The position numbers and the translations under genes are program-made. 64,000 nucleotides of DNA. Source: a virus. Location of the stretch: IMG/VR virus record IMGVR_UViG_3300037247_001096, positions 1 to 64,000 of that record, one strand, 5' to 3'. Shown here one piece after another: positions 5,951 to 54,423 of this stretch. Position 1 is the stretch's first letter; the number at the start of each line of letters is the position of its first letter. Below the pieces are notes generated by a model that saw only the letters and a program-made list of their open reading frames with translations, was not told the origin of the DNA and did not search any database.

Positions 5951-7153
5951 TTACGCCGTCAGGCTGAAGTTGTGGATACGAGCCTCGGCCCGAGGCCCAC
6001 TATGGATGGCGGAGACATCAGCATAGAATGCTTGCTGAATCCGAGGGCCAGTCGAGCTGGGCGGGAGCTGCCGGAGCTGTGGCCGGCCAAGCGTCCCGTG
6101 GTGACCCATCCGGTGGTTCTCCCGTCGGATGAGTAGTATCTCGTCCTGAGCCACTGCGGTGTGCAGCAAGATGTCGATGACTCCGAAGTCGGTGTTCAAA
6201 CGATCAACCGTGATGCCAGCCGTCTGGCCGGTACCCGGGCCGAGTCGCTCGGCACCGCTGAAGAACGAGCTAACCTTCCTCTTCCCCCAACCGCCGACGA
6301 TGATGGTCTTAGCCAGTTTGTCGCCGCCGACTTCGTAGAAGAGGTCTTCCAGCTCGTCGTCGATGTCACTACGGGTGAGAGCGGCACCCGCAAGGTCAGT
6401 CACCTGGGCGCCGTTGGCTGCCGTCACAAAGTCCTTGACGCCCCCCAGAAGGGAGGGAACCGAGGACGAGCCGGCAAACCGGTCACCGTGTACGAACTCC
6501 TGCTCCATGAGGACGAACTGCTCGGCTACGGTGTCCGCAGCCTGCTTGTCCAGGTCGTTCCCCTGGAGACCGTACTGCTGCGTCTCGACCATGCGGAAGG
6601 TGGCCTGCACGCCGACCGAGTGTACCTGGCTGTAGTTGAAAGGCATGGTGGTCAGACTCGTGGGCCTGAAGACCCAGTTGTCGTTCTCGTGCATCGCAAA
6701 CCCAGCCACGAACACCTCATCGGTCGAAGCCCAGGAACCTTCAGTCACACGACTGGTGATGTCGCGCTGAATGGTCAAGGCGTTGACACTTGCGTGTCCC
6801 GTCACCCGCACGAACTCGTCGTCGTTCCGGTTGTACAGAATCGTACCGACCGGGAAACGGTGAGCCGCACCAGTAACTACGAGGGTAGTGGTACCCCCAG
6901 CCGCGAGGCCGCTATGCGACAGGCGGCGGTTCCACGGGTCGTCTTCCACCCACTCGATTCGAGTGTGGGTGTACTGGAACTGTTCTACTCCACCGGTGTA
7001 CTTGAGGAAATCGGTCGAGCGCTCGCTCATGTTGACCAAGAGCGGCGCTACCCAGCGGACTCGCAGCGACGTGGTACCATCGAGCAAGAACTCCGCCGGA
7101 TAACCGCTATCCGGCATACCGGCGAAGCGCATCGTTTCTACTGTTCCTGCCAT
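5951..7153 (-). CDS. Major capsid protein (SU10/DUF5309-like, HK97 fold)
   Basis: 400 aa after the scaffold; IEWVED, NYSQV, MEQEFVHG, LLGGV and TDFGVI motifs. Confidence 0.8.
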   Translation of the reverse strand: MAGTVETMRFAGMPDSGYPAEFLLDGTTSLRVRWVAPLLVNMSERSTDFLKYTGGVEQFQYTHTRIEWVEDDPWNRRLSHSGLAAGGTTTLVVTGAAHRFPVGTILYNRNDDEFVRVTGHASVNALTIQRDITSRVTEGSWASTDEVFVAGFAMHENDNWVFRPTSLTTMPFNYSQVHSVGVQATFRMVETQQYGLQGNDLDKQAADTVAEQFVLMEQEFVHGDRFAGSSSVPSLLGGVKDFVTAANGAQVTDLAGAALTRSDIDDELEDLFYEVGGDKLAKTIIVGGWGKRKVSSFFSGAERLGPGTGQTAGITVDRLNTDFGVIDILLHTAVAQDEILLIRRENHRMGHHGTLGRPQLRQLPPSSTGPRIQQAFYADVSAIHSGPRAEARIHNFSLTA

Positions 7154-39262: not shown

Positions 39263-40555
39263 ATGACGGGGGTATTTTGGTGCGTGTCCCTAGTGCTGAC
39301 CGACGAGGCATTCCTCGTTAAGTGGCACCACGCCCTGGTACCAGAATCTCTGTCGAGAGGGCCGCTACGTTTCCTCATGGCGGCCGCCCTCGAACACTGG
39401 GATTTGTATGGGAGGCGGATGGACTGGCCGTCGTTCCTGTACTGGGTAGATAACGGGGTGGAAGACCCAGACCTCCACGAAGAGTACCGCCAGATGTACT
39501 TAGACATCACCACTGCCTACGCCGTTACCGACAGCAGCCGCCCCACCGCCTGGGCTGCGGCTGAGGAGTGGGTGCAGAGCTACCACGTGGGTATGGCGCT
39601 TGACCGTGCCCGGGCTGCCCTCGTCGCCGGCGACCGGGGTGGCGCCTTTTCCGAGCTCCTAGGGCTGCGGGAGGTGACGGGAGAGGAGAAGGCCGCCCCA
39701 CCCATCAGCCTGGCGGACGCTCGTCTCGGTGAGCTGCTGAGGGCACGCCCCCAGGAGGAGGATGCCTGTCCTACGGGCATCGCCAAGGTGGACGAGCTCT
39801 GGGAGGGAGGTGTCTACCCGGGCGACCTGGCGGTGGTCGCAGCCGACACGAACGTGGGGAAGTCTCAGGTGCTATGCTACCTCGCCTCCTCTGCCTACTT
39901 CCACAACAAAAGAGTCCTCTACTATACATTTGAGCTCACCCAGACGCAGGTGGCGGAGCGAGTACTGACCGCTCTCTTCGAGTGCCCGAAGCAGGAACTG
40001 AATCCCGCCACCATAGTTGACGACCTGATGCGGTTCCGGGAGCGAAAGCAGATTGACAAGGGTTCCCTCGTCATTGACGATGGCGCCGCTATCCGCACTG
40101 TCGCCGACCTGGGGCGCCGGCTGGCGGAGGAGGACATTGACCTGGTGCTTCTCGACTCGGCGGACGACCTCCAGCCAAGCAGGAACTACACCAAAGCGTA
40201 TGAGGGTTTTGAAGAACTCTATCGTGACCTGCGGATTAATATCTGCCAGGGCCTGGAGCTACCAGTCTGGACATCGGTTCAGCTCAATCGTGACGCCGTA
40301 GAGAAGGCGAAGGTCAGCCTGAAGCATATGGGTGGTTCCTATGCCAAGGCCCAACGCCCACATCTCGTCCTCGGCATGAGCCAGACGCCCGACGAGCGGG
40401 ACTTCGATCTGGGGCCACTCGTGAAGTTGCACATACTCAAGGACACCATCCACGGTTCTAAGGGTAAGTGGTTCCGGCACCTGACGATGTTCGGCCGGGG
40501 GAGTAGAGGGTGGCCGGGATTCAGTTACTATCCCGACTGGGAGGATTTATCATGA
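39263..40555 (+). CDS. DnaB-like (SF4) replicative helicase
   Basis: PTGIAKVD..GG...G.L, AADTNVGKS, YTFEL, LVLLD, PVWTSVQLNR. Confidence 0.88.
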   Translation: MTGVFWCVSLVLTDEAFLVKWHHALVPESLSRGPLRFLMAAALEHWDLYGRRMDWPSFLYWVDNGVEDPDLHEEYRQMYLDITTAYAVTDSSRPTAWAAAEEWVQSYHVGMALDRARAALVAGDRGGAFSELLGLREVTGEEKAAPPISLADARLGELLRARPQEEDACPTGIAKVDELWEGGVYPGDLAVVAADTNVGKSQVLCYLASSAYFHNKRVLYYTFELTQTQVAERVLTALFECPKQELNPATIVDDLMRFRERKQIDKGSLVIDDGAAIRTVADLGRRLAEEDIDLVLLDSADDLQPSRNYTKAYEGFEELYRDLRINICQGLELPVWTSVQLNRDAVEKAKVSLKHMGGSYAKAQRPHLVLGMSQTPDERDFDLGPLVKLHILKDTIHGSKGKWFRHLTMFGRGSRGWPGFSYYPDWEDLS

Positions 40556-40761
40556 CAAAATGGACAGTTGCCGAGGTACACCCAGGTCAGCTATACGAGT
40601 CAACCGACCCACGTGATGGCGGGCGCCGCGTTGAGGTTACGGAGATATTTGCTGGAGAGGTGGCAGTACGAAACATTCGCACAGGGCGAACAAGCTACAT
40701 CCGCAAACAGAACCTTTGCTCAACGCTAGGCAATCGGGGGTGGCGCCGGGTAGGTCGATGA
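40552..40761 (+). CDS. Small SH3-like protein, paralogue of 54420-54626
   Basis: EVxxGQxxxxxDxR..R.V.V..I...GWR. Confidence 0.55.
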   Translation: MTKWTVAEVHPGQLYESTDPRDGGRRVEVTEIFAGEVAVRNIRTGRTSYIRKQNLCSTLGNRGWRRVGR

Positions 40762-41714
40762 ATACAAAGAAGCTGATCGCCGTTCTGGAAGACCACGGGT
40801 TCCACGTCTACCTTGCTGAGGGGGGCACTGAGTTGGTCATCGCCTGTCCCTTGTGTTTCGATGAGAAGCAGAAGCTCTACATCAGTGCCGCCACAGCCGC
40901 CTGGATTTGTTTTCGCTGCAATTCTCGTGGTGGGCTCCACTCCCTACTCCTGGAGGTGTGCGAGCTGTCACCTAATGAAGCGTATCCGATGGAGATGGCG
41001 CTCCTGGAGGGGAAGAAGCAGCGCCCTGCGCTCATCGTCTCCAGGCCGGCGCCGGCCTCTACCATCGAGCTGCCCCCTGGCTTCATGCCCGACCAGGGAG
41101 ACGGCCTTGCGGCCTGCTATCTCCAACACCGATGTCTGGATGGCGACTGGGCACCAGAGTTGGGGATTGGTTACTGCCTCGTTGGATACTACCATCATCG
41201 TGTAATCGTGCCGGTCGTGACGCAGGGGGCGCTCCGTACCTTCGTCGCCCGCACCTGGTTGGAGGACGAGCCAAAGAAAGTATTGATGCCACCCGGCAGC
41301 CAGGCCGAGCGTGCGTTGTTTGGGTACGATAACCTAGTCGGTGGGGAGACCGTCATCCTATGCGAAGGAGTATTTGACACCCTACGGATGTGGGCGGCAG
41401 GCTACCGTGAGGCCGTGGCCACCCTAGGCGCTCATGTCACCGAGCTCCAGCGCAATCTAGTGAAACGTCTTGCCCCTAGGAGCGTTGTTCTTCTTAGAGA
41501 CGCTGATGAGGCCGGCCGGGAGTCGGCCATCAAGGACGCCAAGGCGCTGAGTGAGGCGATGCTGAACGTGTCGATAGCAAACCTCCCCAACGGTACCGAC
41601 CCGGGGTCTGCATCGCCGGTACAAATCAGGCGGGCACTTGACGAAGCCCGGCCGGTTGAGTTACAGTTAGGAATCGAGGCTTTGAAGGAGGCGCATCATG
41701 GCAGGAAAGACTAA
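40758..41714 (+). CDS. DNA primase (Zn finger + TOPRIM)
   Basis: CPLC...CFRC, RVIVP, CEGVFD, DADEAG, DPG. Confidence 0.9.
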   Translation: MNTKKLIAVLEDHGFHVYLAEGGTELVIACPLCFDEKQKLYISAATAAWICFRCNSRGGLHSLLLEVCELSPNEAYPMEMALLEGKKQRPALIVSRPAPASTIELPPGFMPDQGDGLAACYLQHRCLDGDWAPELGIGYCLVGYYHHRVIVPVVTQGALRTFVARTWLEDEPKKVLMPPGSQAERALFGYDNLVGGETVILCEGVFDTLRMWAAGYREAVATLGAHVTELQRNLVKRLAPRSVVLLRDADEAGRESAIKDAKALSEAMLNVSIANLPNGTDPGSASPVQIRRALDEARPVELQLGIEALKEAHHGRKD

Positions 41715-41836: not shown

Positions 41837-42835
41837 ATGGCAAAGACTAAGAGCGACTTGAGTGGGTGGGCATCGGACATCGACAGCGAGGCGACCCGTG
41901 CTCTCATCGCACAGATCGCAGAGGAGGGGGAGAAGAAGCCCTGGGATAAGTTAGAGTCCGACCCTAAGAAGTTCATTGCGAACTACCGACGCATCTGTCC
42001 GAAGCGACCAGAGTGGCCAAACCCCTATCAAATCTTTCCCGTCCATTATCTCGGGCCAAACAGTAGGCTGGTGATCTGCCTCAAAGAGGCAGGCATAGGC
42101 GAGTGCCCCGCCTGTGTACTCCGCTGGCAGCTCCACGAAGCCAAGGCTGAGGCAGAAGCGCGTGGCCTCCGAGCGTCAATCCGCACATTCCTCAACGTCG
42201 TGCGCCTCGACAAAGAGGGGAACATCGCCGAGGACAAGGTGTTCCTACTGGGGCTGAACCAGCTCCAGTTCCTGGGCAAGAGGGGCGTCGAGTACGACTC
42301 AGACGAGGAGTCCGAGCTGCCGTTGTTCAACTTCTTTGAGAAGTATGGCGACCTCTCCCACGTGGAGACCGGCCGCGACCTGCTCATCAAGGCCAAAGAC
42401 GACAAGCAGGGGGACTACAACGTACAGAAGCTCAAGTTCTCGGTCGCTGACCCGAGCCCCTTCCCCGGCACCAGCGAGTTGCTGGAGGAGAACCTGGTCG
42501 ACCTACCAACAGTGGTGACCGCAATGGAACCGACTGAGATGGTAGCCACTATCGAGGGGCGGGCCACCGGCGCCATGCAGCTCGCTGCACCAGGTACGGC
42601 GCCGGCAGCACAGCTCCCGGCACCGACCGAGGCGCCGGCCAAGGCGAGCCGCTTTGGTGGGGCGGAGGATGAAGAGGAAGCTACGGAACCCGAGGCGTCG
42701 AGAGAGGAGCCTGCTGCCGAACAGCCGGCCGAGGCGGGTGAAAAGGAGGATGCTCGCGCAGCGGCGCAGCCTCCCAAGACCGACCCGGCCGCCGCTATCG
42801 AGCGGCTTCGCAAGAACCAGGGCAACGGGAGCTAA
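41837..42835 (+). CDS. Single-stranded DNA-binding protein (T4 gp32-like)
   Basis: RICP...H...C......CPAC Zn site, GDL...TGRDL, acidic tail; lies between primase and RecA. Confidence 0.75.
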   Translation: MAKTKSDLSGWASDIDSEATRALIAQIAEEGEKKPWDKLESDPKKFIANYRRICPKRPEWPNPYQIFPVHYLGPNSRLVICLKEAGIGECPACVLRWQLHEAKAEAEARGLRASIRTFLNVVRLDKEGNIAEDKVFLLGLNQLQFLGKRGVEYDSDEESELPLFNFFEKYGDLSHVETGRDLLIKAKDDKQGDYNVQKLKFSVADPSPFPGTSELLEENLVDLPTVVTAMEPTEMVATIEGRATGAMQLAAPGTAPAAQLPAPTEAPAKASRFGGAEDEEEATEPEASREEPAAEQPAEAGEKEDARAAAQPPKTDPAAAIERLRKNQGNGS

Positions 42836-44249: not shown

Positions 44250-44523
44250 CTGTCAGTTCTACTCGTCGGCCGCGTCAAGCTGCCACCGCCGGCCCACCAC
44301 CCACTACTATGGGAGTGTGGAGCGTGGCCCTATGTGGTTGTGCGTGAACAAGCACCTCAAGGCGCAGGACAATCGTGACCGGGAGATGCGAGAGCAGGAA
44401 ATGGATGCGATTCTTCGGGAGAAGATGATGGCTGACGGTATTCTCCTTCAGCAAATTACAGAGGTGGCCCTGAACATGCTGGAGCCCCACCCATGGAACG
44501 GCGAGGTATATCTTGATGCCTAG
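44233..44523 (+). CDS. Zn-finger-like hypothetical protein
   Basis: C...C...C...H N-terminus. Confidence 0.45.
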   Translation: MIRTPSCQFYSSAASSCHRRPTTHYYGSVERGPMWLCVNKHLKAQDNRDREMREQEMDAILREKMMADGILLQQITEVALNMLEPHPWNGEVYLDA

Positions 44524-45499
44524 AGCCTACACCCCTCTGACCTCGATACGGATAGAAAACTTCCAAAGCATAAAGGCCGCCACCATCGAGCTCGGCCGGC
44601 TCACCGTTTTGGTTGGCGCCGGGGACGCGGGGAAGAGCGCCATCCTCCGTGCGTTGCGGGCAGCGTGCCTCAACGACGCTTCAGATGACGACATTCGTCA
44701 TGGGCAGAAGAAGGTCGAGGTAACCCTCACTTTTGAGGATGGCGTTACTATTGAGTGGTGGAAGCAGAAAGGGCAGGGTGGGTGCTACCGCATGACGGAC
44801 AGCGACCCCGAGCGAGTCTTCACCAAGACTGGGGGGGCCGTACCCGAGGAGATTGCTGAGTACCTAGGTATTGGTACCATCGAGGTCGACGCCACTACCG
44901 AGCTCACCCCACAACTAAGCGACCAACATGATTTGCCCTTCCTACTCTGGGAAACGGGTAGCAAACGTGCCCGCATCTTGGGGAAGGCCACTCGCCTAGA
45001 TGTCCCCATCTCGGCTCAGATGCTGTGCAAGAAGGAACTTGACCAGACCCGACGGGGTGCAGAGGACGCCACCACCGCCCTCGTGGACGTAGAGGAGCGG
45101 CTCGGCGCTCTCCCTGACTACGAGAATTTGGAGGGTCGGCTGGATGAGACCGAGGCGAACCTCAAGACTATCGACGACAACCTCAGGCTCGTCCGCCGGG
45201 CTCGGGGGCTGGCTGACCAAATCGCGGAGGTGCGCTCCCGAGCTACGGCGGTCGACGTGGCGCCTCTGCGTGCCCGGCTGGACGACGCGGCCGAGGCGTT
45301 GGAAGTGGCAGAGCGGGCGCAGTTCCTAGGCCGGCGCATCCCCGAGCTAAAGAACACGCTCACAGGTTTGACCGAGCGTGCGGCCGACCACCAAGAGGCG
45401 CTTGAGAGCTTCCTCAAGCAGTACCAGGAGGCTTGTCTCTCCTCGGGCGTGTGCCTAGTCTGCGGCGGCCTGCTCACCCATGAGGAGTGTGGTGCATGA
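44513..45499 (+). CDS. sbcC: SbcC/Rad50 N-terminal half (Walker A, Q-loop, coiled coil, Zn hook)
   Basis: IENFQS, GAGDAGKSAILRAL, DQHD Q-loop, terminal CLVCG. Confidence 0.8.
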   Translation: MMPRAYTPLTSIRIENFQSIKAATIELGRLTVLVGAGDAGKSAILRALRAACLNDASDDDIRHGQKKVEVTLTFEDGVTIEWWKQKGQGGCYRMTDSDPERVFTKTGGAVPEEIAEYLGIGTIEVDATTELTPQLSDQHDLPFLLWETGSKRARILGKATRLDVPISAQMLCKKELDQTRRGAEDATTALVDVEERLGALPDYENLEGRLDETEANLKTIDDNLRLVRRARGLADQIAEVRSRATAVDVAPLRARLDDAAEALEVAERAQFLGRRIPELKNTLTGLTERAADHQEALESFLKQYQEACLSSGVCLVCGGLLTHEECGA

Positions 45500-46479
45500 A
45501 CATTCTATTCGCAGGCTGCCTTCACGCTGCCGACCGAGCCCCCGCTGGTCGGGTGGATGACTACATGTTCACCATCATGGACAAGCTGGAGAACATCGCC
45601 CGTCTCTGCGAGGAGTACAAGTGCGCCGCCGCTTGTTTCGCCGGTGACATTTTTCACATCAAACAGTCGAATCGCGTAAGTGATGCCCTCCGCCAGCAGC
45701 TCATCACAGCCTTCAAACGCTTTCCGTGTGAGGTACTGGTTACTGTTGGGAATCACGACCTCGGCCCTGATGGAGTAGAGAGCCTGCCCCGCCAACCCCT
45801 AGGGACGCTGGACAAAGCCGGGGCTGTGAAAGTCCTCCTCAAGATGACTGATACGCGCCTTGGCTTCTGGCTCGTACCCCGTCCCTACAGCGCTGCTGCC
45901 GAGGGGGTGTACGACGGTCAGACTGACCCATCATACTACTCCCTAACTGAGGAAGAACAGGTTCTCATCGCCAAGAATCCGGCCCCTGTCATCGGCCTGG
46001 CCCATGGCTCCCTGCTGGCCCCCGGCGACAGCCGCCAATACCCCTACGTGAACGTCGACAAGATACCCGGCCTCGATAAGTACGACTTACTTATCTCTGG
46101 CCACCTGCATGAGTGCTTGGGTGTGGTGCCGGTGGGCAAGACCCTGTTCGCCAACCCCGGGTCTATCGGGCGGACGCGGCGAGACATCGCCTCCTATGCC
46201 CGCACGGTGGAGGTGCTGGTGGTTGACGTTCAGAAGGACGGTGTGACTGTTAAGGAGGTGCCGCTCCCTGGCGTGGCGCCGGCACTAGAGGTATTCGGCC
46301 GGCGGGAGCCTGATGATGCACCCGACCTACCCGAGGACGACATCACGAAGTTTGTGGAAGTCCTGGGCGAGGGTCTTAGAGCCGACGAACTCTCCATTCC
46401 CGACTTGCTTGCGGAGCTGGGGGACATCGAACCAGCGGTGAGGGCTGAGGTACAGCGCCTTCTCGAAGAAGTTCAATGA
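45496..46479 (+). CDS. sbcD: SbcD/Mre11-like nuclease
   Basis: AGDIFH, GNHD, LAHG, SGHLH, NPGS. Confidence 0.85.
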   Translation: MNILFAGCLHAADRAPAGRVDDYMFTIMDKLENIARLCEEYKCAAACFAGDIFHIKQSNRVSDALRQQLITAFKRFPCEVLVTVGNHDLGPDGVESLPRQPLGTLDKAGAVKVLLKMTDTRLGFWLVPRPYSAAAEGVYDGQTDPSYYSLTEEEQVLIAKNPAPVIGLAHGSLLAPGDSRQYPYVNVDKIPGLDKYDLLISGHLHECLGVVPVGKTLFANPGSIGRTRRDIASYARTVEVLVVDVQKDGVTVKEVPLPGVAPALEVFGRREPDDAPDLPEDDITKFVEVLGEGLRADELSIPDLLAELGDIEPAVRAEVQRLLEEVQ

Positions 46480-46934
46480 TGCAGCAAAGAGACAGTCGGG
46501 GACGTTACGTGCAGAGACCGGTTCAGGACAGATTCTGGGCTAAAGTCGACGCACACTCCGAAGGGGGCTGCTGGCTTTGGGTGGGTGCAAAGACACCTAA
46601 TGGGTATGGTCAGATTTGGGTGAATGGCTCCTTGGTGCTGGCCCACCGTTGGTCTTACGAGACCCTAAGAGGCCCTATCCCTCCAGACAAGGAGCTCGAC
46701 CATCTCTGTCGGACATCTGCTTGTGTCAATCCCTTCCACCTAGAGGCCGTTACCCACCAAGAAAATATGAGACGGGGGGATGCGGGTGACAACATGCTCA
46801 AGAAAACACACTGTCCACAGAGGCATCCCTACAGTCTCGCCAACACCTACCGGTGGCGTAATACTCGCCGCTGTAAAGTGTGTAAACGAAATCAGCTCCG
46901 GCAGTGGCGAAGGCAGCAAGAGGAGGCAGCATGA
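46476..46934 (+). mobile_element. HNH homing endonuclease
   Basis: RFWAKV...CWLW.G...GYG...AHRWSY...LDHLC....CVNPFHLEAVT..EN; THCPQRH...CKVC. Confidence 0.9.
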
Positions 46935-47101
46935 GTAGTATGACCTGTGAGTCCTGTCTATACGTAATGGTAGAGTGTGGTTGGTGTCAAGGGGACTTCT
47001 GTGCCGCGTGTCTGACTCCTTGTCCCCAGTGCGAATTGGATGTCTGCGTCGTCTGTGCGGGGCAAGACCACGACCACGTGAAGGCAGAGGAGGTGTCGTA
47101 A
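46931..47101 (+). CDS. Very Cys-rich microprotein
   Basis: Five CxxC pairs in 56 aa; GAGGAGG RBS. Confidence 0.55.
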   Translation: MSSMTCESCLYVMVECGWCQGDFCAACLTPCPQCELDVCVVCAGQDHDHVKAEEVS

Positions 47102-47216
47102 TGAAGGCGAAGAAAGACCGGTACGCAGAGTTGGAGCAGATGAGTAAAGACCAGCTCATAGGTATCATTTGGTTGTTGGAGCAGACCCTTGTGAAGATGG
47201 CGAGGGTGGCCGAGTC

Positions 47217-47471
47217 ATGACCATCATACCAACCATCGACCAGTTGCGGAAAGACATGGACTCCGCGCGTAACGACCTAGCCCGGATTGACGGGCAGCAG
47301 CAGGGCGCCCGGGAGGAGCTGACCAAGCTGGAAGTGGAGGCCGGCGAACTAGGCATTGCCCCGGATAAGCTCAATGAGGAGGCCACCCGTATCACAGAGG
47401 ATGTATACACGGCGCTCCAGGCGGTACAGGCGGAGACCCAGGCGCTGACAAAGGAGACCACCGGTGACTGA
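47217..47471 (+). CDS. Small coiled-coil protein (possible middle piece of the split SbcC)
   Basis: Heptad pattern; directly upstream of the SbcC C-terminal half. Confidence 0.55.
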   Translation: MTIIPTIDQLRKDMDSARNDLARIDGQQQGAREELTKLEVEAGELGIAPDKLNEEATRITEDVYTALQAVQAETQALTKETTGD

Positions 47472-48120
47472 CGTTGACCTGACCCCGCTCCGAGCTGACC
47501 TGACGGCCGTCCGCCAGCGGGTGCATGAATGGCGGGGCCAGGCCGATATGTTACACGACCAGGAAGTCCGGGAGTTAGTGCGTCAGAAATCCATGCGCGA
47601 ACGGGAAGAGCTCCTCGCAAAGGTACTAGTCGTTCTCCAGAAGCTGGAGGCCACCTGGAGGGGACGGTACGAGGCAGCCCTAGCCGCCCTAGGCAGCCAG
47701 GGGTTGAATGCCGTCTTCACTGATGCGGAGTATGAACTGCTCCTGGAGTCTACCATCAAGCGGGGTGTGTCCAGTCTCGACATCGTGCTGGTGAAGGACG
47801 GACAGCGTGTGCGGCTCAAGGGAGGAAGTGGCGGCTCGGTCGTCCAGGTCTTGGCCTACCTCCTGAGGCACCTCATGACGGTCTCCCAACGCCCCGAGCT
47901 GCGGAGGTTTGAGGCGCTCGACGAACCATTTGCAATGGTGCGGGCCGCTCAAAGGCCCGCTCTCGGCGCGATGGTGAAGGACATAACTCAGCGATTGGAT
48001 TTCCAACTCCTCTTCTCGTCAGACGAAGATGAGCTAGTGGACGCCGCTGACGTGGTAATCCTTGTCCACCCGGGCGGGAAGGTGGAGAAACTGAAGAGTG
48101 GACAGGAGGACAGAGCATGA
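47464..48120 (+). CDS. sbcC: SbcC/Rad50 C-terminal half (signature, Walker B)
   Basis: Coiled coil then GSGGSVVQVLAYLLR, ALDEPF, AADVVILV. Confidence 0.75.
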   Translation: MTDVDLTPLRADLTAVRQRVHEWRGQADMLHDQEVRELVRQKSMREREELLAKVLVVLQKLEATWRGRYEAALAALGSQGLNAVFTDAEYELLLESTIKRGVSSLDIVLVKDGQRVRLKGGSGGSVVQVLAYLLRHLMTVSQRPELRRFEALDEPFAMVRAAQRPALGAMVKDITQRLDFQLLFSSDEDELVDAADVVILVHPGGKVEKLKSGQEDRA

Positions 48121-49154: not shown

Positions 49155-51815
49155 ATGACGGCGCCTAGAGACTGTAACCGCTGCCCTCAGTTAGCTCGGG
49201 TAAGGTCGTGTGTGGTTAACGGTTCCGGCCCGACTGAGGCCAGAATCGCAATGGTCGGCGAAGGCCCGGGTAATTACGAAGACCAGAAGAGGAGGCCCTT
49301 CGTAGGGAAGGCCGGCCGGGTACTGCGCACCATCGAGTGGGCTGCTGGTATCAACCAACACCTAGTCTACTACACCAACGCCACACGCTGTTGGGGTAAG
49401 CGAAACCCGAAGCCGGCGGAGGTGGACGCCTGCCACCATTTCCTCATTGAAGAGCTGCGGGAACTCAACCCCTCGGTCATTGTGGCGCTTGGCGGCGCCG
49501 CTCTCCGTTCCCTCTACCGCCCCGGCGTAACCGTTGGCTCGGTGATGGGCTTCACCCTATACAACGACGAGCTCCCTGGCATCCCCGTCATCCCAACCTA
49601 CCACCCCTCATACATCATGCGCGGGCATTGGGATGAGGTGGCGTTGGTACTGGCTCACTTCCGCAAGGCAAAGCGCATCGCCGAGGAAGGGGGTATCGAA
49701 GAGAAGCTGGGATCGTACATGGGTATCACCACACTAGAGGAGCTGCGGGCGCTCCGAGATTACCTACTTTCTGATGCCGTTTCTATACTGGCCCTAGATA
49801 CTGAGACTTGCGGTTTATCGTGGATGGACTCCGAACTCCTCTGCATCAGCTTCTCGGGTGAGGAGGGAGTCGGGTATAGCGTCCCCATCCTCCACCGGGG
49901 CGAGCGCACCGTCATGAAGACGAAGGGGCGGGGCAAGAACCGTAGGGAAGTGCCCGAACAGGAGTGGTGGCCTGTCCCCTACTGGGACTTGGAGAAGGAG
50001 ATGCCCGAGGTGATCAGTATCCTCGACGAAATCCTCCGCTCCGACAAACCCAAGGCGGGTCAGAACATCGGGTTTGATTTGAGAATGTTGGAGCGCCGGC
50101 CTGATGAGGCGGTGGTGACGGCCCAGACTGCACTCGGCTTCTACGTTAACAACGTACAGCACGACACCAAAATGCTGAGCTCACTACTGTCTGAGGTGAG
50201 CCCGGCCAACTTGACGGTGCTCACAGCCTACCATACGGATATGCCCTATTACGAGGCTGAGATTTCCGGGATGAAATCCAAGATGTGGCACGTCCCTGAC
50301 AAGGAATTATGGGAATACGGAGGAGCCGATGTCGATGTCGTGCAGCGGCTGGTGCCCCGGCTCTACCCCCAGGTGCAGGCTGAAAAGTCGGACTGGGTGT
50401 ACGAAAACATCAGCATCCCCCTCATCCGCTGCGCCACGAAGCTAGAGGAGCGGGGCGTCTACATCGACCAGGAGTATTTCGATAAGCTCTGCTTGTACTA
50501 CAAGGACGACCTGGCGAGGAAGAAGGCGGAGCTAAATGAGACGGTTGGGCGTGAGGTGAAGCATCCTAGCCACTACCAGCACGTACAGAAACTCGTCTTC
50601 AAAGACCTGGGCCTGCCCCTCACCGCCCAGCCCACCGATGGCGCCCGCAAGGAGTGTGACAAGTGTCGGAAGACGCAAAGTCCCTGCTCACCGGCCCATG
50701 CCTCAACATCGGCCGACGCCTTGGCGGAGTTGAACGAGCGGGCACCCCACCCGGTGCTACCTCTCCTCGTTGACATTCGCCACGTCGAGAAGTTCGGTAG
50801 TACCTACTTAGATGGGGGTGAGGGGGGTGGGTTCCGTGTTCATATTCGGGCAGACAGCCGCATTCACGGTCGCTGGACTGCCGGAGGCGCTCGGGCAACA
50901 GGGCGCTTTACTTGCGAGGAACCCGCCCTTATGACTCTACCCAAGGAAATTAGGATTCATTCGGACGAGTATGACATCCACTCTGACGATGCCATTCGCG
51001 CCATGTGCGCTGCTCCTCCAGGATACGGGGTACTCAACGCTGACTGGGGCCAGGCCGAGGTTTGGGTCATGGCCTACGAGACGGGAGATGAGACCCTCCT
51101 CAAGTTGCTGATAGATGGAACGGACATCCACGCCTACGTTGCCCGGGAGCTCTGCAAGTTGGGGGTCTCTACTAGGTTCCCCCATGAATCCGTGGATGAC
51201 ACGCTCTCCCTAGAGGAGTGGAGGAGCAAGTACAAGGAAGTGCGTGACAGGGGCAAGACCTTTGTGTTCGGGATGAACTATGGCCTAACCGACGAAGGAG
51301 CTGGCCAGCGCCTAGGCTGCTCGGCAGAGGAGGCGTCGCCACTCCTGTCACACTACATCCAGAGTATCTTTCCTTCGATGGGATCATACTTCATTCGGAT
51401 TCGTGAAGAGATGTTCCAGCGAGGGTCGGTCGCTGACCGCTTTGGGCGCCGGCGGCACTTCGCCGAGGTGCCCATCCTAGCGGCGCTGCGCTACCGGGGA
51501 GACCTGGAGGGGGCCATCCGCCAGGGGTACAACATGCCCATCCAGGGCGGGGCACACGACCTTCACTCCCTGGCGCACATCGCCACTGAGAGGGAGCTGT
51601 CGTCGTTCGTCCAGCCCGTAATTGAGATGCACGACTCCCTTGCCATGTACGCCCCTCTAGACCGACTCGAAGAGGGTGGGGCTGCTATCAAGGAGCTGTG
51701 GGGCCACGTGGCCCGAGATACCATCCTACCCTCCGGTGAGCGGCTTGCTTGGGAGATTCCCGTCGAGATACAATGGGGTAGGAGCTTTGGAGAGCTGGAG
51801 GCGCACATTGAGTAA
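49155..51815 (+). CDS. polA: Family A DNA polymerase with N-terminal family-4 uracil-DNA glycosylase domain
   Basis: UDG: CxxC, GEGPG, PFVG.AG, TYHPSY. Exo: DTET, NIGFD, YGGAD. Pol: TGR, ADWGQAE, R..GK...FGMNYG, NMPIQG, HD. Confidence 0.92.
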   Translation: MTAPRDCNRCPQLARVRSCVVNGSGPTEARIAMVGEGPGNYEDQKRRPFVGKAGRVLRTIEWAAGINQHLVYYTNATRCWGKRNPKPAEVDACHHFLIEELRELNPSVIVALGGAALRSLYRPGVTVGSVMGFTLYNDELPGIPVIPTYHPSYIMRGHWDEVALVLAHFRKAKRIAEEGGIEEKLGSYMGITTLEELRALRDYLLSDAVSILALDTETCGLSWMDSELLCISFSGEEGVGYSVPILHRGERTVMKTKGRGKNRREVPEQEWWPVPYWDLEKEMPEVISILDEILRSDKPKAGQNIGFDLRMLERRPDEAVVTAQTALGFYVNNVQHDTKMLSSLLSEVSPANLTVLTAYHTDMPYYEAEISGMKSKMWHVPDKELWEYGGADVDVVQRLVPRLYPQVQAEKSDWVYENISIPLIRCATKLEERGVYIDQEYFDKLCLYYKDDLARKKAELNETVGREVKHPSHYQHVQKLVFKDLGLPLTAQPTDGARKECDKCRKTQSPCSPAHASTSADALAELNERAPHPVLPLLVDIRHVEKFGSTYLDGGEGGGFRVHIRADSRIHGRWTAGGARATGRFTCEEPALMTLPKEIRIHSDEYDIHSDDAIRAMCAAPPGYGVLNADWGQAEVWVMAYETGDETLLKLLIDGTDIHAYVARELCKLGVSTRFPHESVDDTLSLEEWRSKYKEVRDRGKTFVFGMNYGLTDEGAGQRLGCSAEEASPLLSHYIQSIFPSMGSYFIRIREEMFQRGSVADRFGRRRHFAEVPILAALRYRGDLEGAIRQGYNMPIQGGAHDLHSLAHIATERELSSFVQPVIEMHDSLAMYAPLDRLEEGGAAIKELWGHVARDTILPSGERLAWEIPVEIQWGRSFGELEAHIE

Positions 51816-51946: not shown

Positions 51947-52594
51947 ATGGTCATGAGTGACGACAATGCCCTTGTCCCATCAGACGGCCGCACGGCCGCC
52001 CGTGTCCGAGGGGAGGATGGGCTACTCCCTGCTCAGCGAGAGTACCTTGCGGTATACTCAGATACGGGTTCGCCTGCGGAAGCCTTACGCCGGCTCCGCC
52101 TCACGCAAGCCCGAGTCACCCGCTGGCTCCGAGAAGACCCCGCCTTCCTCAGAGTCCACGAAGACCTCTTCAAGGGATCTTACAATGCGACTAAGGCGCG
52201 GTTCGGGGCGCTTCAGGAGCGGCTGCCTGACCTGGCACTAGACCTCATGCAGGCCCATAAAGTGGTAGTGGTAAAGCATATCTGCACCGAGTGCGGTAAC
52301 AAGCAGGACGTGGCGGTGGACACTACGAACGATACAGTACGTGCACGGATGTGGTCTGACCTGATGAAGGCAGCGGGTCACCTCAAGGACGTGCGCCGGA
52401 TAGAGGGCGACATGCTCACTACCCACTTCACTGCCGGGCAGCGCATCGCCCTGGAGAGACTGAGGCGTGGTGGTGACATCAGTGTTCAGCAATATAAAGA
52501 GCTGGAATCTATGGGCGCTCTCGAAGACTTGAAGAGGTACGACGGCTCGGGGGTGGTGGAAGACGAAGTTGCCGATGCCGCAAATGGCCTGTAA
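51947..52594 (+). CDS. HTH protein, putative terminase small subunit
   Basis: L.PAQ..YL..Y...G....A.......V.RW...DPAF pattern typical of TerS HTH domains. Confidence 0.5.
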   Translation: MVMSDDNALVPSDGRTAARVRGEDGLLPAQREYLAVYSDTGSPAEALRRLRLTQARVTRWLREDPAFLRVHEDLFKGSYNATKARFGALQERLPDLALDLMQAHKVVVVKHICTECGNKQDVAVDTTNDTVRARMWSDLMKAAGHLKDVRRIEGDMLTTHFTAGQRIALERLRRGGDISVQQYKELESMGALEDLKRYDGSGVVEDEVADAANGL

Positions 52595-52640
52595 TGTACA
52601 ATAGATAATTCCGTTGTAGGTAGTGAAAGGAAGGTGCATC

Positions 52641-52868
52641 ATGGCATTCCTACCGGTAGTCTCATCCACATTGACCGCAGTGAAGTACGACCGGGAACGA
52701 GGCCGGTTGGTCATCCAGTTCCCCGGTGAGAGCTTCTACGAGTACGATGGAGTCCCGGGGGAGGTGGTGCTCGACTTCCTCTTCTCCGACTCTATTGGTG
52801 GCGCGTTCAGCACTCTCATGAAAAAGGGAGGATTCCAGTACCGTCGCATCGCAGCTAAGGACGCCTAG
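52641..52868 (+). CDS. KTSC domain protein
   Basis: VSSTLTAVKYD....LVIQF....YEY.GVP......F....SIG..F. Confidence 0.85.
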   Translation: MAFLPVVSSTLTAVKYDRERGRLVIQFPGESFYEYDGVPGEVVLDFLFSDSIGGAFSTLMKKGGFQYRRIAAKDA

Positions 52869-52879
52869 GGAGGGCCTTG

Positions 52880-53173
52880 ATGGTATGGGAAAACGAAAAC
52901 GGAAGCGACGTACAAAAGTGGCCCACGTGGAGCACCCGCCGAAACTGGGCGCGAAACAACTATCTGAAGTACGGCATCCAGTGGAAGCTCCAGAAGTTCC
53001 TGGTGATGCTGGCGAACCTGACGGTGCTGAACGACCTGATAGAGGAGGAGGGCGGGGAGGTGCTGCTGACGCCCAAACAGAGGAGGGAGTGGAAGGGGTG
53101 GTACGAATCATTTCGACCGACCCATCCAGTGGGCCGTCCGAAGAGCGACTCGGGGAGTGGCCATACAGAATAG
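52880..53173 (+). CDS. Hypothetical Trp-rich protein
   Basis: GGGAGG RBS at good spacing; overlaps the 5' part of the next long ORF. Confidence 0.45.
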   Translation: MVWENENGSDVQKWPTWSTRRNWARNNYLKYGIQWKLQKFLVMLANLTVLNDLIEEEGGEVLLTPKQRREWKGWYESFRPTHPVGRPKSDSGSGHTE

Positions 53174-54423
53174 TCAAGACCCCTGAAGACCTACTTGCCT
53201 TGGGAGAGTGGCTCCAGGTACTGGGGGGCGAGGTCGAAAAGACCCCGGTGGGTATCGCCGCCACCAGCAGTGAGCTGGCTCTGGCGACGAAGGCTCAGGG
53301 GTGGCTACTCCGCGCCGACGTTGACCCAGAGACCCATGCTAGACTCGCGGGTAGTGCGGGCCATGCTGTCCTTCGCAAACTACTCACAGCGGAGCGTACA
53401 GCGCCGGCCCTGGTGACCCGGGATACGGGTTACCTCATCACTGCCTTAGAAAACTGGTTGGGAGATTACGACCGCAATGCTCTCTTGCCCAACATCGTCC
53501 ACGATATGAAGGTATTGGAGTACGTGACTGGTCGAGGTATTGCCGTGGGTATGACGGCCCTCAAGGATGCTTTGGACTGTGCCGTCGTAGGGCCTGGGAT
53601 GGCGCTAGAGGCCCCACGCTTCTACCAGCAGGTGGGTATGCCCCTAGCGCGTCACAATGCGCAGACACATGTCATCTACGTAGACCCCGAGGTACCCGCG
53701 CAAGCGGCTGGGGCTAAGCCGTGGAGCCGCTGGACGCTCACCTACGATTACCTGCTGTTCCGGGTGCTGGCCCACTACACACGCGACCCCACGATGACCC
53801 GATGGTTCGAGGAGGGTAGAAGCCCCCTACAGGAGTTCAGTAGCTACCTGGAACTCAACTCGAAAGAGGCCACAGCATTCCTCTTGTGGATGGTCTGCGG
53901 TGAGGAGGAGGAGCTTGTCAGCCGGTACTACCCCGACTGGGCCACCCTCATGCCAGAGGCACCTCAGCTTATCAAGGCGTCCCGAGTTGACAAGACCCTT
54001 CCCAACCTACGCCTGGGGCTCATCAGGCTGACCGATCAGTACGCCATCTCCCGCAAGACCGAGACTTTGTACGGGCGCCGCTCACCGTGGGGCCTGAAGC
54101 CTCAGGAGCTCCTGCACTTCGTCATCATGGGGTCGGTGAATGACCTTTTAGATGTCGTAGTGGCGTCCATCATCAGGCTGGGAAGTGACGCGCATTGGCT
54201 AGTCCCAGAGGCCAGCACGAAATACAACCACTGGTTAAGAGCACAGGTTGTTGGCTATAGTAAAGAGGAGCCTATGGATTGGCAGCGAAAATTGGAAGAA
54301 CTCGGGCAGCTCAACAACCCTCTGGGAGCGGTCTCCCTTGAACCGAGAGTGAGTGTCGAAGTTGCACGGCGTGGCGTCGATACCCTCCGCGCCCGCATCA
54401 AGGAGCTGGGAGGTGAGGAATGA
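52885..54423 (+). CDS. Degenerate, probably inactive PolA paralogue (start may be GTG 53098)
   Basis: Collinear remnants of PolA motifs: TYDYLLFRVLAHYTRD, ETLYGRR, IMGSVND; catalytic Asp/Lys/Tyr/HD residues not retained. Confidence 0.6.
   Translation: MGKRKRKRRTKVAHVEHPPKLGAKQLSEVRHPVEAPEVPGDAGEPDGAERPDRGGGRGGAADAQTEEGVEGVVRIISTDPSSGPSEERLGEWPYRIVKTPEDLLALGEWLQVLGGEVEKTPVGIAATSSELALATKAQGWLLRADVDPETHARLAGSAGHAVLRKLLTAERTAPALVTRDTGYLITALENWLGDYDRNALLPNIVHDMKVLEYVTGRGIAVGMTALKDALDCAVVGPGMALEAPRFYQQVGMPLARHNAQTHVIYVDPEVPAQAAGAKPWSRWTLTYDYLLFRVLAHYTRDPTMTRWFEEGRSPLQEFSSYLELNSKEATAFLLWMVCGEEEELVSRYYPDWATLMPEAPQLIKASRVDKTLPNLRLGLIRLTDQYAISRKTETLYGRRSPWGLKPQELLHFVIMGSVNDLLDVVVASIIRLGSDAHWLVPEASTKYNHWLRAQVVGYSKEEPMDWQRKLEELGQLNNPLGAVSLEPRVSVEVARRGVDTLRARIKELGGEE

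Follow-up and report, generated by a model that had tools for sequence, protein, structure and literature searches.

Why should a phage that encodes an active-looking replicative DNA polymerase also carry, about 1 kb downstream of it, an intact gene for what looks like a second polymerase deprived of its catalytic residues? The question is raised by IMG/VR record IMGVR_UViG_3300037247_001096, a virus record of 73,133 bp that is complete and ends in direct terminal repeats, and whose first 64 kb are the stretch of DNA analysed here (hereafter the window). The gene concerned lies on the plus strand at 52885..54423 and encodes a protein of 512 residues, P0001. An original prediction, made by eye from the sequence, had described it as an apparently catalytically dead paralogue of the family A DNA polymerase (PolA) encoded at 49155-51815. 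This pseudo-polymerase reading is supported by the analyses reported below. On the evidence of sequence profiles and of a predicted structure, P0001 is a homologue of family A DNA polymerases whose resemblance to them goes beyond chance. As judged from the same two sources, it is not a protein capable of DNA polymerization by the two-metal mechanism, the catalytic carboxylates, the O-helix residues that bind deoxynucleoside triphosphates (dNTPs) and the thumb being lost. The chances appear about even that it acts as a non-catalytic component of the replisome, i.e. as a partner or a scaffold.

The gene is an open frame of 512 codons that begins 1,070 nt past the stop of the PolA gene, in agreement with the distance of about 1 kb first proposed. 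The database gene call (P0003) is about 105 codons shorter, at 407 aa, and many homologue entries are likewise short by about 100 codons; from their sequences, these short entries look like start-codon miscalls. In related loci the long frame, basic head included, is present, and residues 1-90 of P0001 are matched there by tblastn. The 512-aa start is favoured over the 407-aa call because of the long frame, the Shine-Dalgarno sequence and the conserved basic N-terminus. The tail thus included opens with a basic Lys/Arg run; a conserved LGxxQL motif and then a Pro-rich acidic linker follow, a layout that is kept in the long-form homologues. The gene and the parts of its product are the following.

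52869..52873, plus strand: GGAGG Shine-Dalgarno sequence, 11 nt 5' of the ATG at 52885 (sequence reading)
52885..54423, plus strand: gene of P0001, predicted thumbless and catalytically inactive PolA homologue (open reading frame (ORF), AlphaFold2 fold, profile match to Taq Pol I)
52885..53145, plus strand: residues 1-87, disordered N-terminal tail (predicted local distance difference test score (pLDDT) 35-46)
53146..53550, plus strand: residues 88-222, vestigial 3'-5' exonuclease-like domain (the VIA alignment begins at model residues 88-93, on Bst 297/Taq 295)
53551..53724, plus strand: residues 223-280, two helices and a loop at the place of the N-terminal palm and thumb (AlphaFold2 secondary structure)
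53725..53793, plus strand: residues 281-303, motif A strand and helix with Thr286 and Leu291 (hidden Markov model (HMM) alignment to Taq, hhalign, column counts)
53860..53904, plus strand: residues 326-340, O-helix (motif B) equivalent with Thr330, Leu334 and Cys338 (hhalign, column counts)
54064..54156, plus strand: residues 394-424, a TLYGRxSPWG strand followed by an MGSVxDLLDV helix; their homologues in Pol I are the GRRR and QGxAAD segments (profile alignment)
54181..54261, plus strand: residues 433-459, motif C beta-hairpin with His437-Trp438 and a longer loop (position in the fold)

P0001 also carries a C-terminal extension of 20 residues (54361-54423), predicted as a helix of modest confidence, that is missing from the 42 other aligned homologues, all of which stop at a conserved V-x-V-E. 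Its stop codon overlaps the ATG of the next ORF (ATGA, 54420-54423).

The homology to family A polymerases cannot be read from pairwise comparison. BLASTP of P0001 against the neighbouring PolA returned nothing significant (best E 0.37). Searches of Pfam, PHROGs and NCBIfam with P0001 gave no match, PF00476 being missed even at E 1, and phmmer with P0001 as well as a shallow profile (A1) found only chance-level matches among the PDB sequences. Since such direct comparisons were non-significant, the by-eye alignment could be confirmed only through relatives and fold. The relatives were collected in two steps. A word-indexed search yielded 46 protein clusters with 40-100% identity to P0001, none of which has a polymerase Pfam annotation. 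Alignment A1 comprises P0001 and 42 of these relatives (43 rows, 41-87% identity) after exclusion of P0003, the window's shorter gene call, and of the fragments P0034, P0046 and P0047; in it, 31 columns are invariant. Searching 1.84 billion representative proteins exhaustively with a profile then gave 80 proteins at E up to 0.001. In neither length nor match pattern does any of the 80 resemble a normal PolA, and the family is therefore considered small and closed. The wide alignment A3 holds 74 sequences, 17 from A1 and 57 new, 15 fragments and two intein-bearing proteins having been left out.

Sequence significance was reached only once the profile had been widened to these 74 sequences. Searched against the PDB sequences, A3 matched Taq Pol I at E 1.9e-12 (50 bits), followed by Pol theta (5e-7), M. 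smegmatis Pol1 (2e-5) and then Pol nu, Bst and Klenow (~1e-3), for a total of 68 PolA-type sequences at E up to 10. In the alignment to Taq, the string 'tvtYddLllRVlahytgDPtL' is placed on motif A, 'TlYGRr' on the GRRR strand and 'ifGsveDild' on the QG helix. The comparison by hhalign of A3 with A2, the profile of the neighbouring PolA family, gave an E of 5.2e-5 and a probability of 67% in a register that agrees with the Taq alignment, while the narrower A1 against A2 gave only E 0.15 and a probability of 0.4%. The gathering cut-off of PF00476 (34.3 bits) was not reached, the distant relative P0103 scoring only 17.9 bits.

The predicted structure leads to the same family. The AlphaFold2 model of P0001, built on A1, has a mean pLDDT of 83.7 and a predicted template modelling score of 0.80; its pLDDT is mostly above 90 at residues 90-497, near 67 in two 10-residue blocks around 260-280 and below 50 at residues 1-77. 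In a Foldseek search of the PDB, all top 50 listed matches are family A polymerases, including Klenow, Taq, Bst, M. smegmatis Pol1, Pol theta, Pol nu and the apicoplast polymerase (best E 4.9e-10; 175 matches at E<=0.001), and every named match of the structure search in BFVD is a phage DNA polymerase. VIA-align superposed residues 93-494 of the model on residues 321-902 of M. smegmatis Pol1 (6vdd_A) with a Z of 21.1 and a root-mean-square deviation (rmsd) of 5.1 over 351 aligned residues. All 50 listed VIA-align rows are PolA enzymes. For the bacterial-type Pol I large fragments, Z is 18-21 with 325-355 residues aligned (Z 18-20 for Bst and Taq), and the aligned region runs from the exonuclease-like domain through the C-terminus. 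The fold expected in the original prediction was thus recovered, rather than another one. In the most distant subgroup, the model of P0100 (pLDDT 89.9) could be aligned to M. smegmatis Pol1 over 344 of its 369 residues (Z 25.3, rmsd 4.0). Since this model shows the same fold, the thumbless PolA architecture is attributed to the whole family.

The seven short strings that had been proposed by eye as exonuclease and polymerase motifs are all present in the proposed order, at residues 94-103, 205-211, 286-304, 326-339, 393-399, 414-422 and 480-489, and the profile alignments allow the catalytic positions among them to be followed through the family. The catalytic Asp of motif A, which we take to be Asp610 in Taq numbering, corresponds to Thr286 in the A3-Taq alignment. 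In the hhalign comparison with the neighbouring PolA, V294 is placed on V638; counting back, D630 falls on T286 and E635 on L291, so that the proposed replacements of Asp by Thr and of Glu by Leu are found by both routes. In A1 the Asp column reads T32 V4 K2 S2 N1 Q1 I1 (Asp/Glu 0/43), and in the wide family two Asp and two Glu occur, the other 70 of the 74 sequences being non-acidic. On the O-helix, hhalign places K701 on T330, F705 on L334 and Y709 on C338. The Lys column of A1 is I20 V8 T6 A4 S2 L1 N1 Q1, without any Lys in 43 sequences; the Tyr column is Cys in 43/43 sequences of A1 and in 31/74 of A3. No conserved basic residue is found in the A1 columns at residues 326-330. The loss of the motif B Lys and Tyr, also noticed at the outset, is therefore borne out by hhalign and column counts. 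The place of motif C is occupied by a hairpin of strands 436-439 and 452-459, in which His437-Trp438 stands instead of His-Asp; this correspondence was assigned by position in the fold, the segment lying outside the HMM and hhalign alignments. Its two columns in A1 are H39/Q4 and W38/Y3/S1/V1 of 43, consistent with the missing His-Asp pair of the original prediction.

The deletion of the thumb was likewise anticipated and can now be located. Where Taq has about 315 aa, residues 93-286 of P0001 number only 193; for residues 286-494 (208 aa) the Taq counterpart is about 216 aa long, so nearly all of the length deficit lies before motif A. Between the exonuclease-like domain and motif A only 56 residues are present (225-280; two helices and a loop) versus about 180 in Taq, and about 230 residues of 6vdd_A are unaligned to the P0001 model. 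Alignment lengths and model together support that most of the thumb, about 120 residues, is gone before motif A. As to the exonuclease-like domain, the strand at the place of ExoI (121-126) has no acidic residue in P0001; column 125 of A1 is A21 S20 V1 E1 and column 126 is A22 V18 M1 C1 L1. Asn203 and Asp207 are conserved in this domain and Asp231 is invariant (A1), the Exo motifs having been assigned by eye, unscored, against the window's own PolA. No PF01612 match was found in P0001 by the Pfam search. The exonuclease-like domains of Taq and Bst are likewise not known to carry an ExoI acidic pair.

The former active-site region, made of the motif A strand, the GRR strand, the QG helix and the motif C hairpin, is the best-conserved surface of the protein. 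The best-conserved stretches are those at residues 394-424, with T394, Y396, R398, G403, G416, D420 and V424 invariant in A1. The aromatic residues W283, Y287, W335, Y396 and W466 are invariant in this region and W402, W438 and Y447 nearly so. Such an aromatic-rich composition suggests that a binding site has been kept here and has not collapsed.

Is the gene maintained by selection? The ratio of non-synonymous to synonymous substitution rates (dN/dS) was estimated by the Nei-Gojobori method from codon-aligned sequences of the window and of nine viral loci. For the whole dead homologue it is 0.20 (L001-L002, dS 0.40), 0.28 (L003-L004) and 0.23 (window-L001), compared with 0.11, 0.06 and 0.13 for PolA in the same three pairs. 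In the four closest pairs, the folded core has a dN/dS of 0.12-0.17, versus 0.06-0.15 for PolA in the same genomes, and the disordered tail one of 0.5-0.75. The folded core is under purifying selection, in line with the selection first argued from a frame intact for more than 400 codons. The dN of the dead homologue follows that of PolA, with a correlation coefficient of 0.97 over 45 non-independent pairs and of 0.78 over the 36 pairs without L009. Because the pairs share branches, this correlation is read as co-divergence and not as co-evolution.

The gene is also inherited together with PolA. The neighbours concerned are the following.

49155..51815, plus strand: active-looking replicative polymerase of 886 aa, a fusion of uracil-DNA glycosylase (UDG) of family 4, 3'-5' exonuclease and PolA (PF03167, PF01612, PF00476)
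51947..52594, plus strand: conserved 215-aa protein of no known family (tblastn match in 10/10 loci holding the region)
52623..52868, plus strand: 81-aa KTSC-domain protein (PF13619, E 6.2e-12), whose stop lies 16 nt before the start of the dead homologue

PolA is found upstream on the same strand in 9/9 viral loci and in L014, the sole one of 6 metagenome loci with enough upstream DNA; co-occurrence in related phages had been proposed at the outset as a check. The order PolA, 215-aa protein, KTSC protein, dead homologue is preserved in all ten loci with enough flanking DNA, and in the 12/12 loci that hold upstream DNA the gene directly preceding the dead homologue is that of the KTSC protein. 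A search seeded with PolA returned 15 loci, of which 11 carry the dead homologue. Nine were contigs already found; among the six new ones, L026 and L027, whose PolA is about 41% identical, carry it 4-6 kb downstream. The 215-aa protein had no match past threshold in Pfam, PHROGs or NCBIfam; by eye, it shows a helix-turn-helix-like N-terminus and a CxxC pair.

The neighbouring polymerase itself looks active. Its PolA and UDG domains are recognized by Pfam at E 3.4e-43 (PF00476) and 5.4e-26 (PF03167), next to the exonuclease domain PF01612, and the catalytic D630, E635, R697, K701, H826 and D827, as well as the exonuclease residues D215/E217, are invariant in 10/10 relatives. It is the only polymerase detectable with PF00476 in the complete genome. 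P0001 is probably not a recent copy of this gene, as the neighbour obtains 10.6 bits from the A3 profile (E 1.8 at PDB-sized Z) where Taq Pol I obtains 50, and an origin by tandem duplication is not indicated by these comparisons; the low score of the neighbour could partly reflect the phage PolA's own divergence. The initial description as a second PolA paralogue therefore stands as regards membership of family A and is not supported as regards descent from the neighbour.

Two side observations concern this polymerase. Its UDG domain (window 49155-49700) looks intact, with a GEGPG motif, an HPS motif and four Cys (C7, C10, C79 and C93) that are invariant in 10 relatives, unlike the N4-like UDG-PolAs, described as having lost the UDG catalytic residues (PMC10201439). 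The intact sequence may be a sign of uracil handling, or of a modified base, in the phage. In L009 and L030, PolA (L009 1865-5335) is 1156 aa long, with about 285 aa inserted between residues 659 and 680 (window PolA numbering); only a weak LAGLIDADG match (E 0.0033) was seen.

The family appears rare. No tblastn match to P0001 was found in 50,697 GenBank phage records, although whether this set includes divPolA-bearing genomes (see below) was not checked. A pattern scan of 185,579 species genomes gave 281 pattern matches, none of which was confirmed, and hence no prophage copy or host, and the distant members P0066 and P0110 used as queries retrieved no viral contig. In the ESM Atlas, the best scores (0.87-0.88, for viral clusters of 416-434 aa) are under the 0.9 line and are leads only. 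Two of these clusters bear the name 'family A palm domain-containing', few or none of their members carrying PF00476, and other short PolA-like viral families may exist.

Inserted elements were observed in several members. Intein-like inserts occur in P0089, inside motif A directly past the conserved Tyr, and in P0086, in the conserved helix before motif A. The L026 record (L031/L032, G005:C1:3288-5240) contains a 724-aa frame with an insert in the helix before motif A, as in P0086. In the homologue of L004 (7222-8946; P0007, 559 aa), an HNH domain (PF13392) is fused in frame within the disordered N-terminal tail. Inteins typically reside in genes that a mobile element cannot afford to lose, and their presence at conserved sites of family members was for this reason counted in favour of a role in the replisome.

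The rest of the genome defines the setting in which such a role would be exerted. The structural genes are on the minus strand, e.g. the major head protein at 5951-7153, and a plus-strand replication and recombination module extends from about 26 kb onward. Besides the genes already listed, it includes the following.

31456, plus strand: DNA helicase
39263-40555, plus strand: DnaB-like helicase
40716-41714, plus strand: Toprim primase
42991, plus strand: RecA/UvsX-like protein
44513-45499, plus strand: SbcC-like ATPase head
45487-46479, plus strand: SbcD-like phosphoesterase
46476-46934: HNH endonuclease, one of those of the module
47169-47471: 100-aa ORF without family match
47464-48120: second ATPase piece (phrog_15167)
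48278, plus strand: RusA-like protein (weak match)
56326, plus strand: exonuclease
57624, plus strand: nucleoside deoxyribosyltransferase-like protein

The row at 44513-48120 looks like an SbcCD-type nuclease, with the ATPase maybe split around inserted genes. The complete genome gave no match to the Pfam models of the beta-clamp (PF00712) and of the single-stranded DNA-binding protein (SSB; PF00436). Between the genes of the primase and of the RecA-like protein, 41837-42835 encodes a 332-aa protein without family match that could be the single-stranded DNA-binding protein not found otherwise. No tRNA genes were found in the 64-kb window.

How could an inert polymerase serve this module? P0001 is the product of a real, expressed-looking gene of a complete phage genome, a degenerate PolA reduced to a vestigial exonuclease-like domain, palm and fingers. 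Inherited alongside the UDG-exonuclease-PolA replicase inside the replication module, it may have been exapted as a non-catalytic scaffold or accessory subunit of the replisome. The former active-site cleft and the basic N-terminal tail would then hold a partner or nucleic acid. We infer such a binding partner and an effect on replication; candidate partners are PolA, the helicase/primase or the adjacent KTSC protein, and the 215-aa protein or the KTSC protein could be the real one. A bolder version, which we regard as possible and rather doubtful, would make P0001 a member of the first described family of exapted dead family A polymerases: an obligatory non-catalytic subunit that pairs with the UDG-exonuclease-PolA in a replisome without recognizable clamp, clamp loader or SSB, supplying processivity or coupling in the manner of the p51 subunit of human immunodeficiency virus (HIV) reverse transcriptase or of the dead module of Pol epsilon. 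The predicted complex of PolA 410-886 with P0001 88-497 scored 0.25, the mark being 0.32, and has no bearing either way on binding.

Several observations weigh against a replisome subunit. Acidic residues persist near the old active site, as Asp/Glu288 (43/43) and Glu/Asp442 (33/43) and as an invariant Asp420 in A1, and an archaeal PolB2 once predicted inactive was later reported to be active (PMC8764526). Phage clamps and SSBs can escape the Pfam models, which makes the lack of a recognizable one weak evidence. The dead homologue accumulates non-synonymous changes faster than PolA (median ratio 1.46). Its family is nearer in profile score to bacterial-type Pol I than to the neighbour, and by this sequence criterion an origin as a subunit copy of the neighbouring PolA is not indicated. 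Finally, PolA occurs without the dead homologue in L020, L024, L028 and L029. These contigs are fragments (19, 11, 72 and 29% complete) that end 2.2, 0.8, 3.5 and 6.5 kb past PolA, respectively; in L029 the dead homologue was not found within the 6.5 kb downstream of PolA.

Other explanations have to be weighed on the same data. One could argue, from the loss of every catalytic motif and of the thumb, that a second polymerase gene is decaying here and that what remains of it is functionless. The selection data (core dN/dS 0.12-0.17) contradict this view, and the frame is intact in all full-length homologues examined, 31 columns are invariant over 43 sequences at 41-87% identity and the AlphaFold2 fold is confident, so that we give it hardly any credence. 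At the opposite extreme, P0001 might still be an enzyme, in which Asp288, Asp420, Glu442 or Cys338 with His437 would form a rebuilt active site for nucleotidyl transfer or another reaction. In the clade of the window, Asp/Glu288 is present in 43/43 sequences, Cys338 and Asp420 are invariant and His437 is found in 39/43, and the archaeal PolB2, predicted dead and proved active, provides a precedent (PMC8764526). These residues are nonetheless poorly kept in the wide family (Cys338 31/74, His437 20/74, acidic 288 37/74), whose near-invariant positions are mainly Pro, Gly, Leu and Tyr (Y247, P253, Y287, L290, P302, P373, Y396, G416, G457, L476, P479, L480 and L485). The only charged ones are R398 and D420, a pattern more like a structural core than an active site. 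Moreover, Asp288 stands just before helix 290-299, a place where Asp is common for structural reasons, and the O-helix is without conserved basic residues to hold a triphosphate. An enzymatic function is thus judged very improbable.

Binding of nucleic acid on its own account deserves more consideration, although we find it unlikely. P0001, with its cleft, its basic tail and perhaps the KTSC protein, would bind a DNA or RNA structure in order to protect, mark or regulate it, the proposed targets being the direct terminal repeats, primers or forks. In favour of this proposal are the retention of the Lys/Arg head and of the LGxxQL motif in long-form homologues, the strongest conservation on palm and finger elements that line the DNA cleft of Pol I, the KTSC gene directly upstream in 12/12 loci and the genome ends made of direct terminal repeats. 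It has to contend with the missing thumb, which is the duplex holder in Pol I, with O-helix Lys/Tyr and QG-motif Gln columns that are non-polar or variable, and with an acidic core (median isoelectric point 5.5), though PolA is acidic too. A last proposal, that of an anti-defence decoy or sponge whose inert polymerase shape would occupy host sensors of the PolA core fold, draws on the defence protein Avs19, which is reported to sense family A polymerases via their core polymerase domain without need of the catalytic Asp (PMC13581612). P0001 keeps this core fold, but the sensor would presumably be triggered, not blocked, by a protein of the fold it senses. The position of the gene within the replication module is constant, its divergence keeps pace with that of PolA to as little as 27% identity, and anti-defence genes are usually fast-evolving and mobile, a pattern unlike that of a core dN/dS of 0.12-0.17. 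We consider such a decoy improbable. Two further candidates were set aside: a protein-priming role as terminal protein is unlikely, the genome having direct terminal repeats, and a degenerate RNA polymerase fails, the catalytic Asp residues being absent.

If the role as a non-catalytic partner or scaffold of the replisome is correct, a conserved, inert and thumbless PolA encoded beside a replicative PolA extends the theme of pseudo-enzymes to family A and points to an unrecognized accessory factor of PolA-type phage replisomes. According to the published accounts, dead polymerase homologues that act as scaffolds are known for families B and Y; the present case is a family A protein in a phage. 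There are also consequences for annotation. No Pfam, PHROGs or NCBIfam model exists for the family and gene callers often shorten it by about 100 codons, while structure-based annotation would mislabel its members 'DNA polymerase I' and inflate the counts of phages with two polymerases.

Compared with the large fragments of Pol I (Taq, Bst, M. smegmatis Pol1 and Klenow), P0001 similarly consists of an exonuclease or exonuclease-like domain, palm and fingers, and its motif A helix, GRR strand and QG helix are recognizably homologous to theirs. It differs in the absence of the thumb, in the replacement of the motif-A Asp and Glu, of the O-helix Lys, Phe and Tyr and of the motif-C Asp, and in the addition of a disordered N-terminal tail of about 90 aa. 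The neighbouring polymerase belongs to the same kind as the UDG-PolA fusions described in phages (Czernecki et al. 2023, PMC10201439; PMC13697223). As far as they were consulted, the PolA reclassification (PMC10201439) and the UDG-PolA structure paper (PMC13697223) mention no dead PolA partner gene. To the same extent, recent PolA surveys deal only with active or presumed-active subfamilies (PMC10201439, PMC12926913, PMC11348598), and the open-access papers searched yielded family B and Y cases and the divPolAs only, with no description of an inactivated phage PolA.

From its published description, the nearest analogue of P0001 is the divPolAs (divPolA1 and divPolA2), second and divergent phage PolAs found beside a regular polymerase (Yutin et al. 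2024, PMC11348598). They share with P0001 a truncated or absent thumb and an inactive or missing exonuclease, and divPolA1 also occurs in a replication context. They are set apart by their palm catalytic residues, which according to the same description are kept, the proteins being predicted active (PMC11348598), whereas P0001 has lost them. In this respect P0001 rather resembles the inactivated polymerases of other families, as reported for the C-terminal exonuclease-polymerase module of Pol epsilon (PMC2669801), an archaeal PolB family (PMC2527604) and the poxvirus protein F12 (PMC4304020) in family B, and for ImuB, an inactive PolY (PMC12926913). These proteins are described from cells or eukaryotic viruses, in contrast to P0001, a family A protein of a tailed phage. 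As in P0001, their fold has been kept under selection after the loss of catalysis, and their known functions are structural or scaffolding ones. The dead polymerase module of Pol epsilon and ImuB both serve as structural hubs, a role comparable to the one proposed here for the dead homologue.

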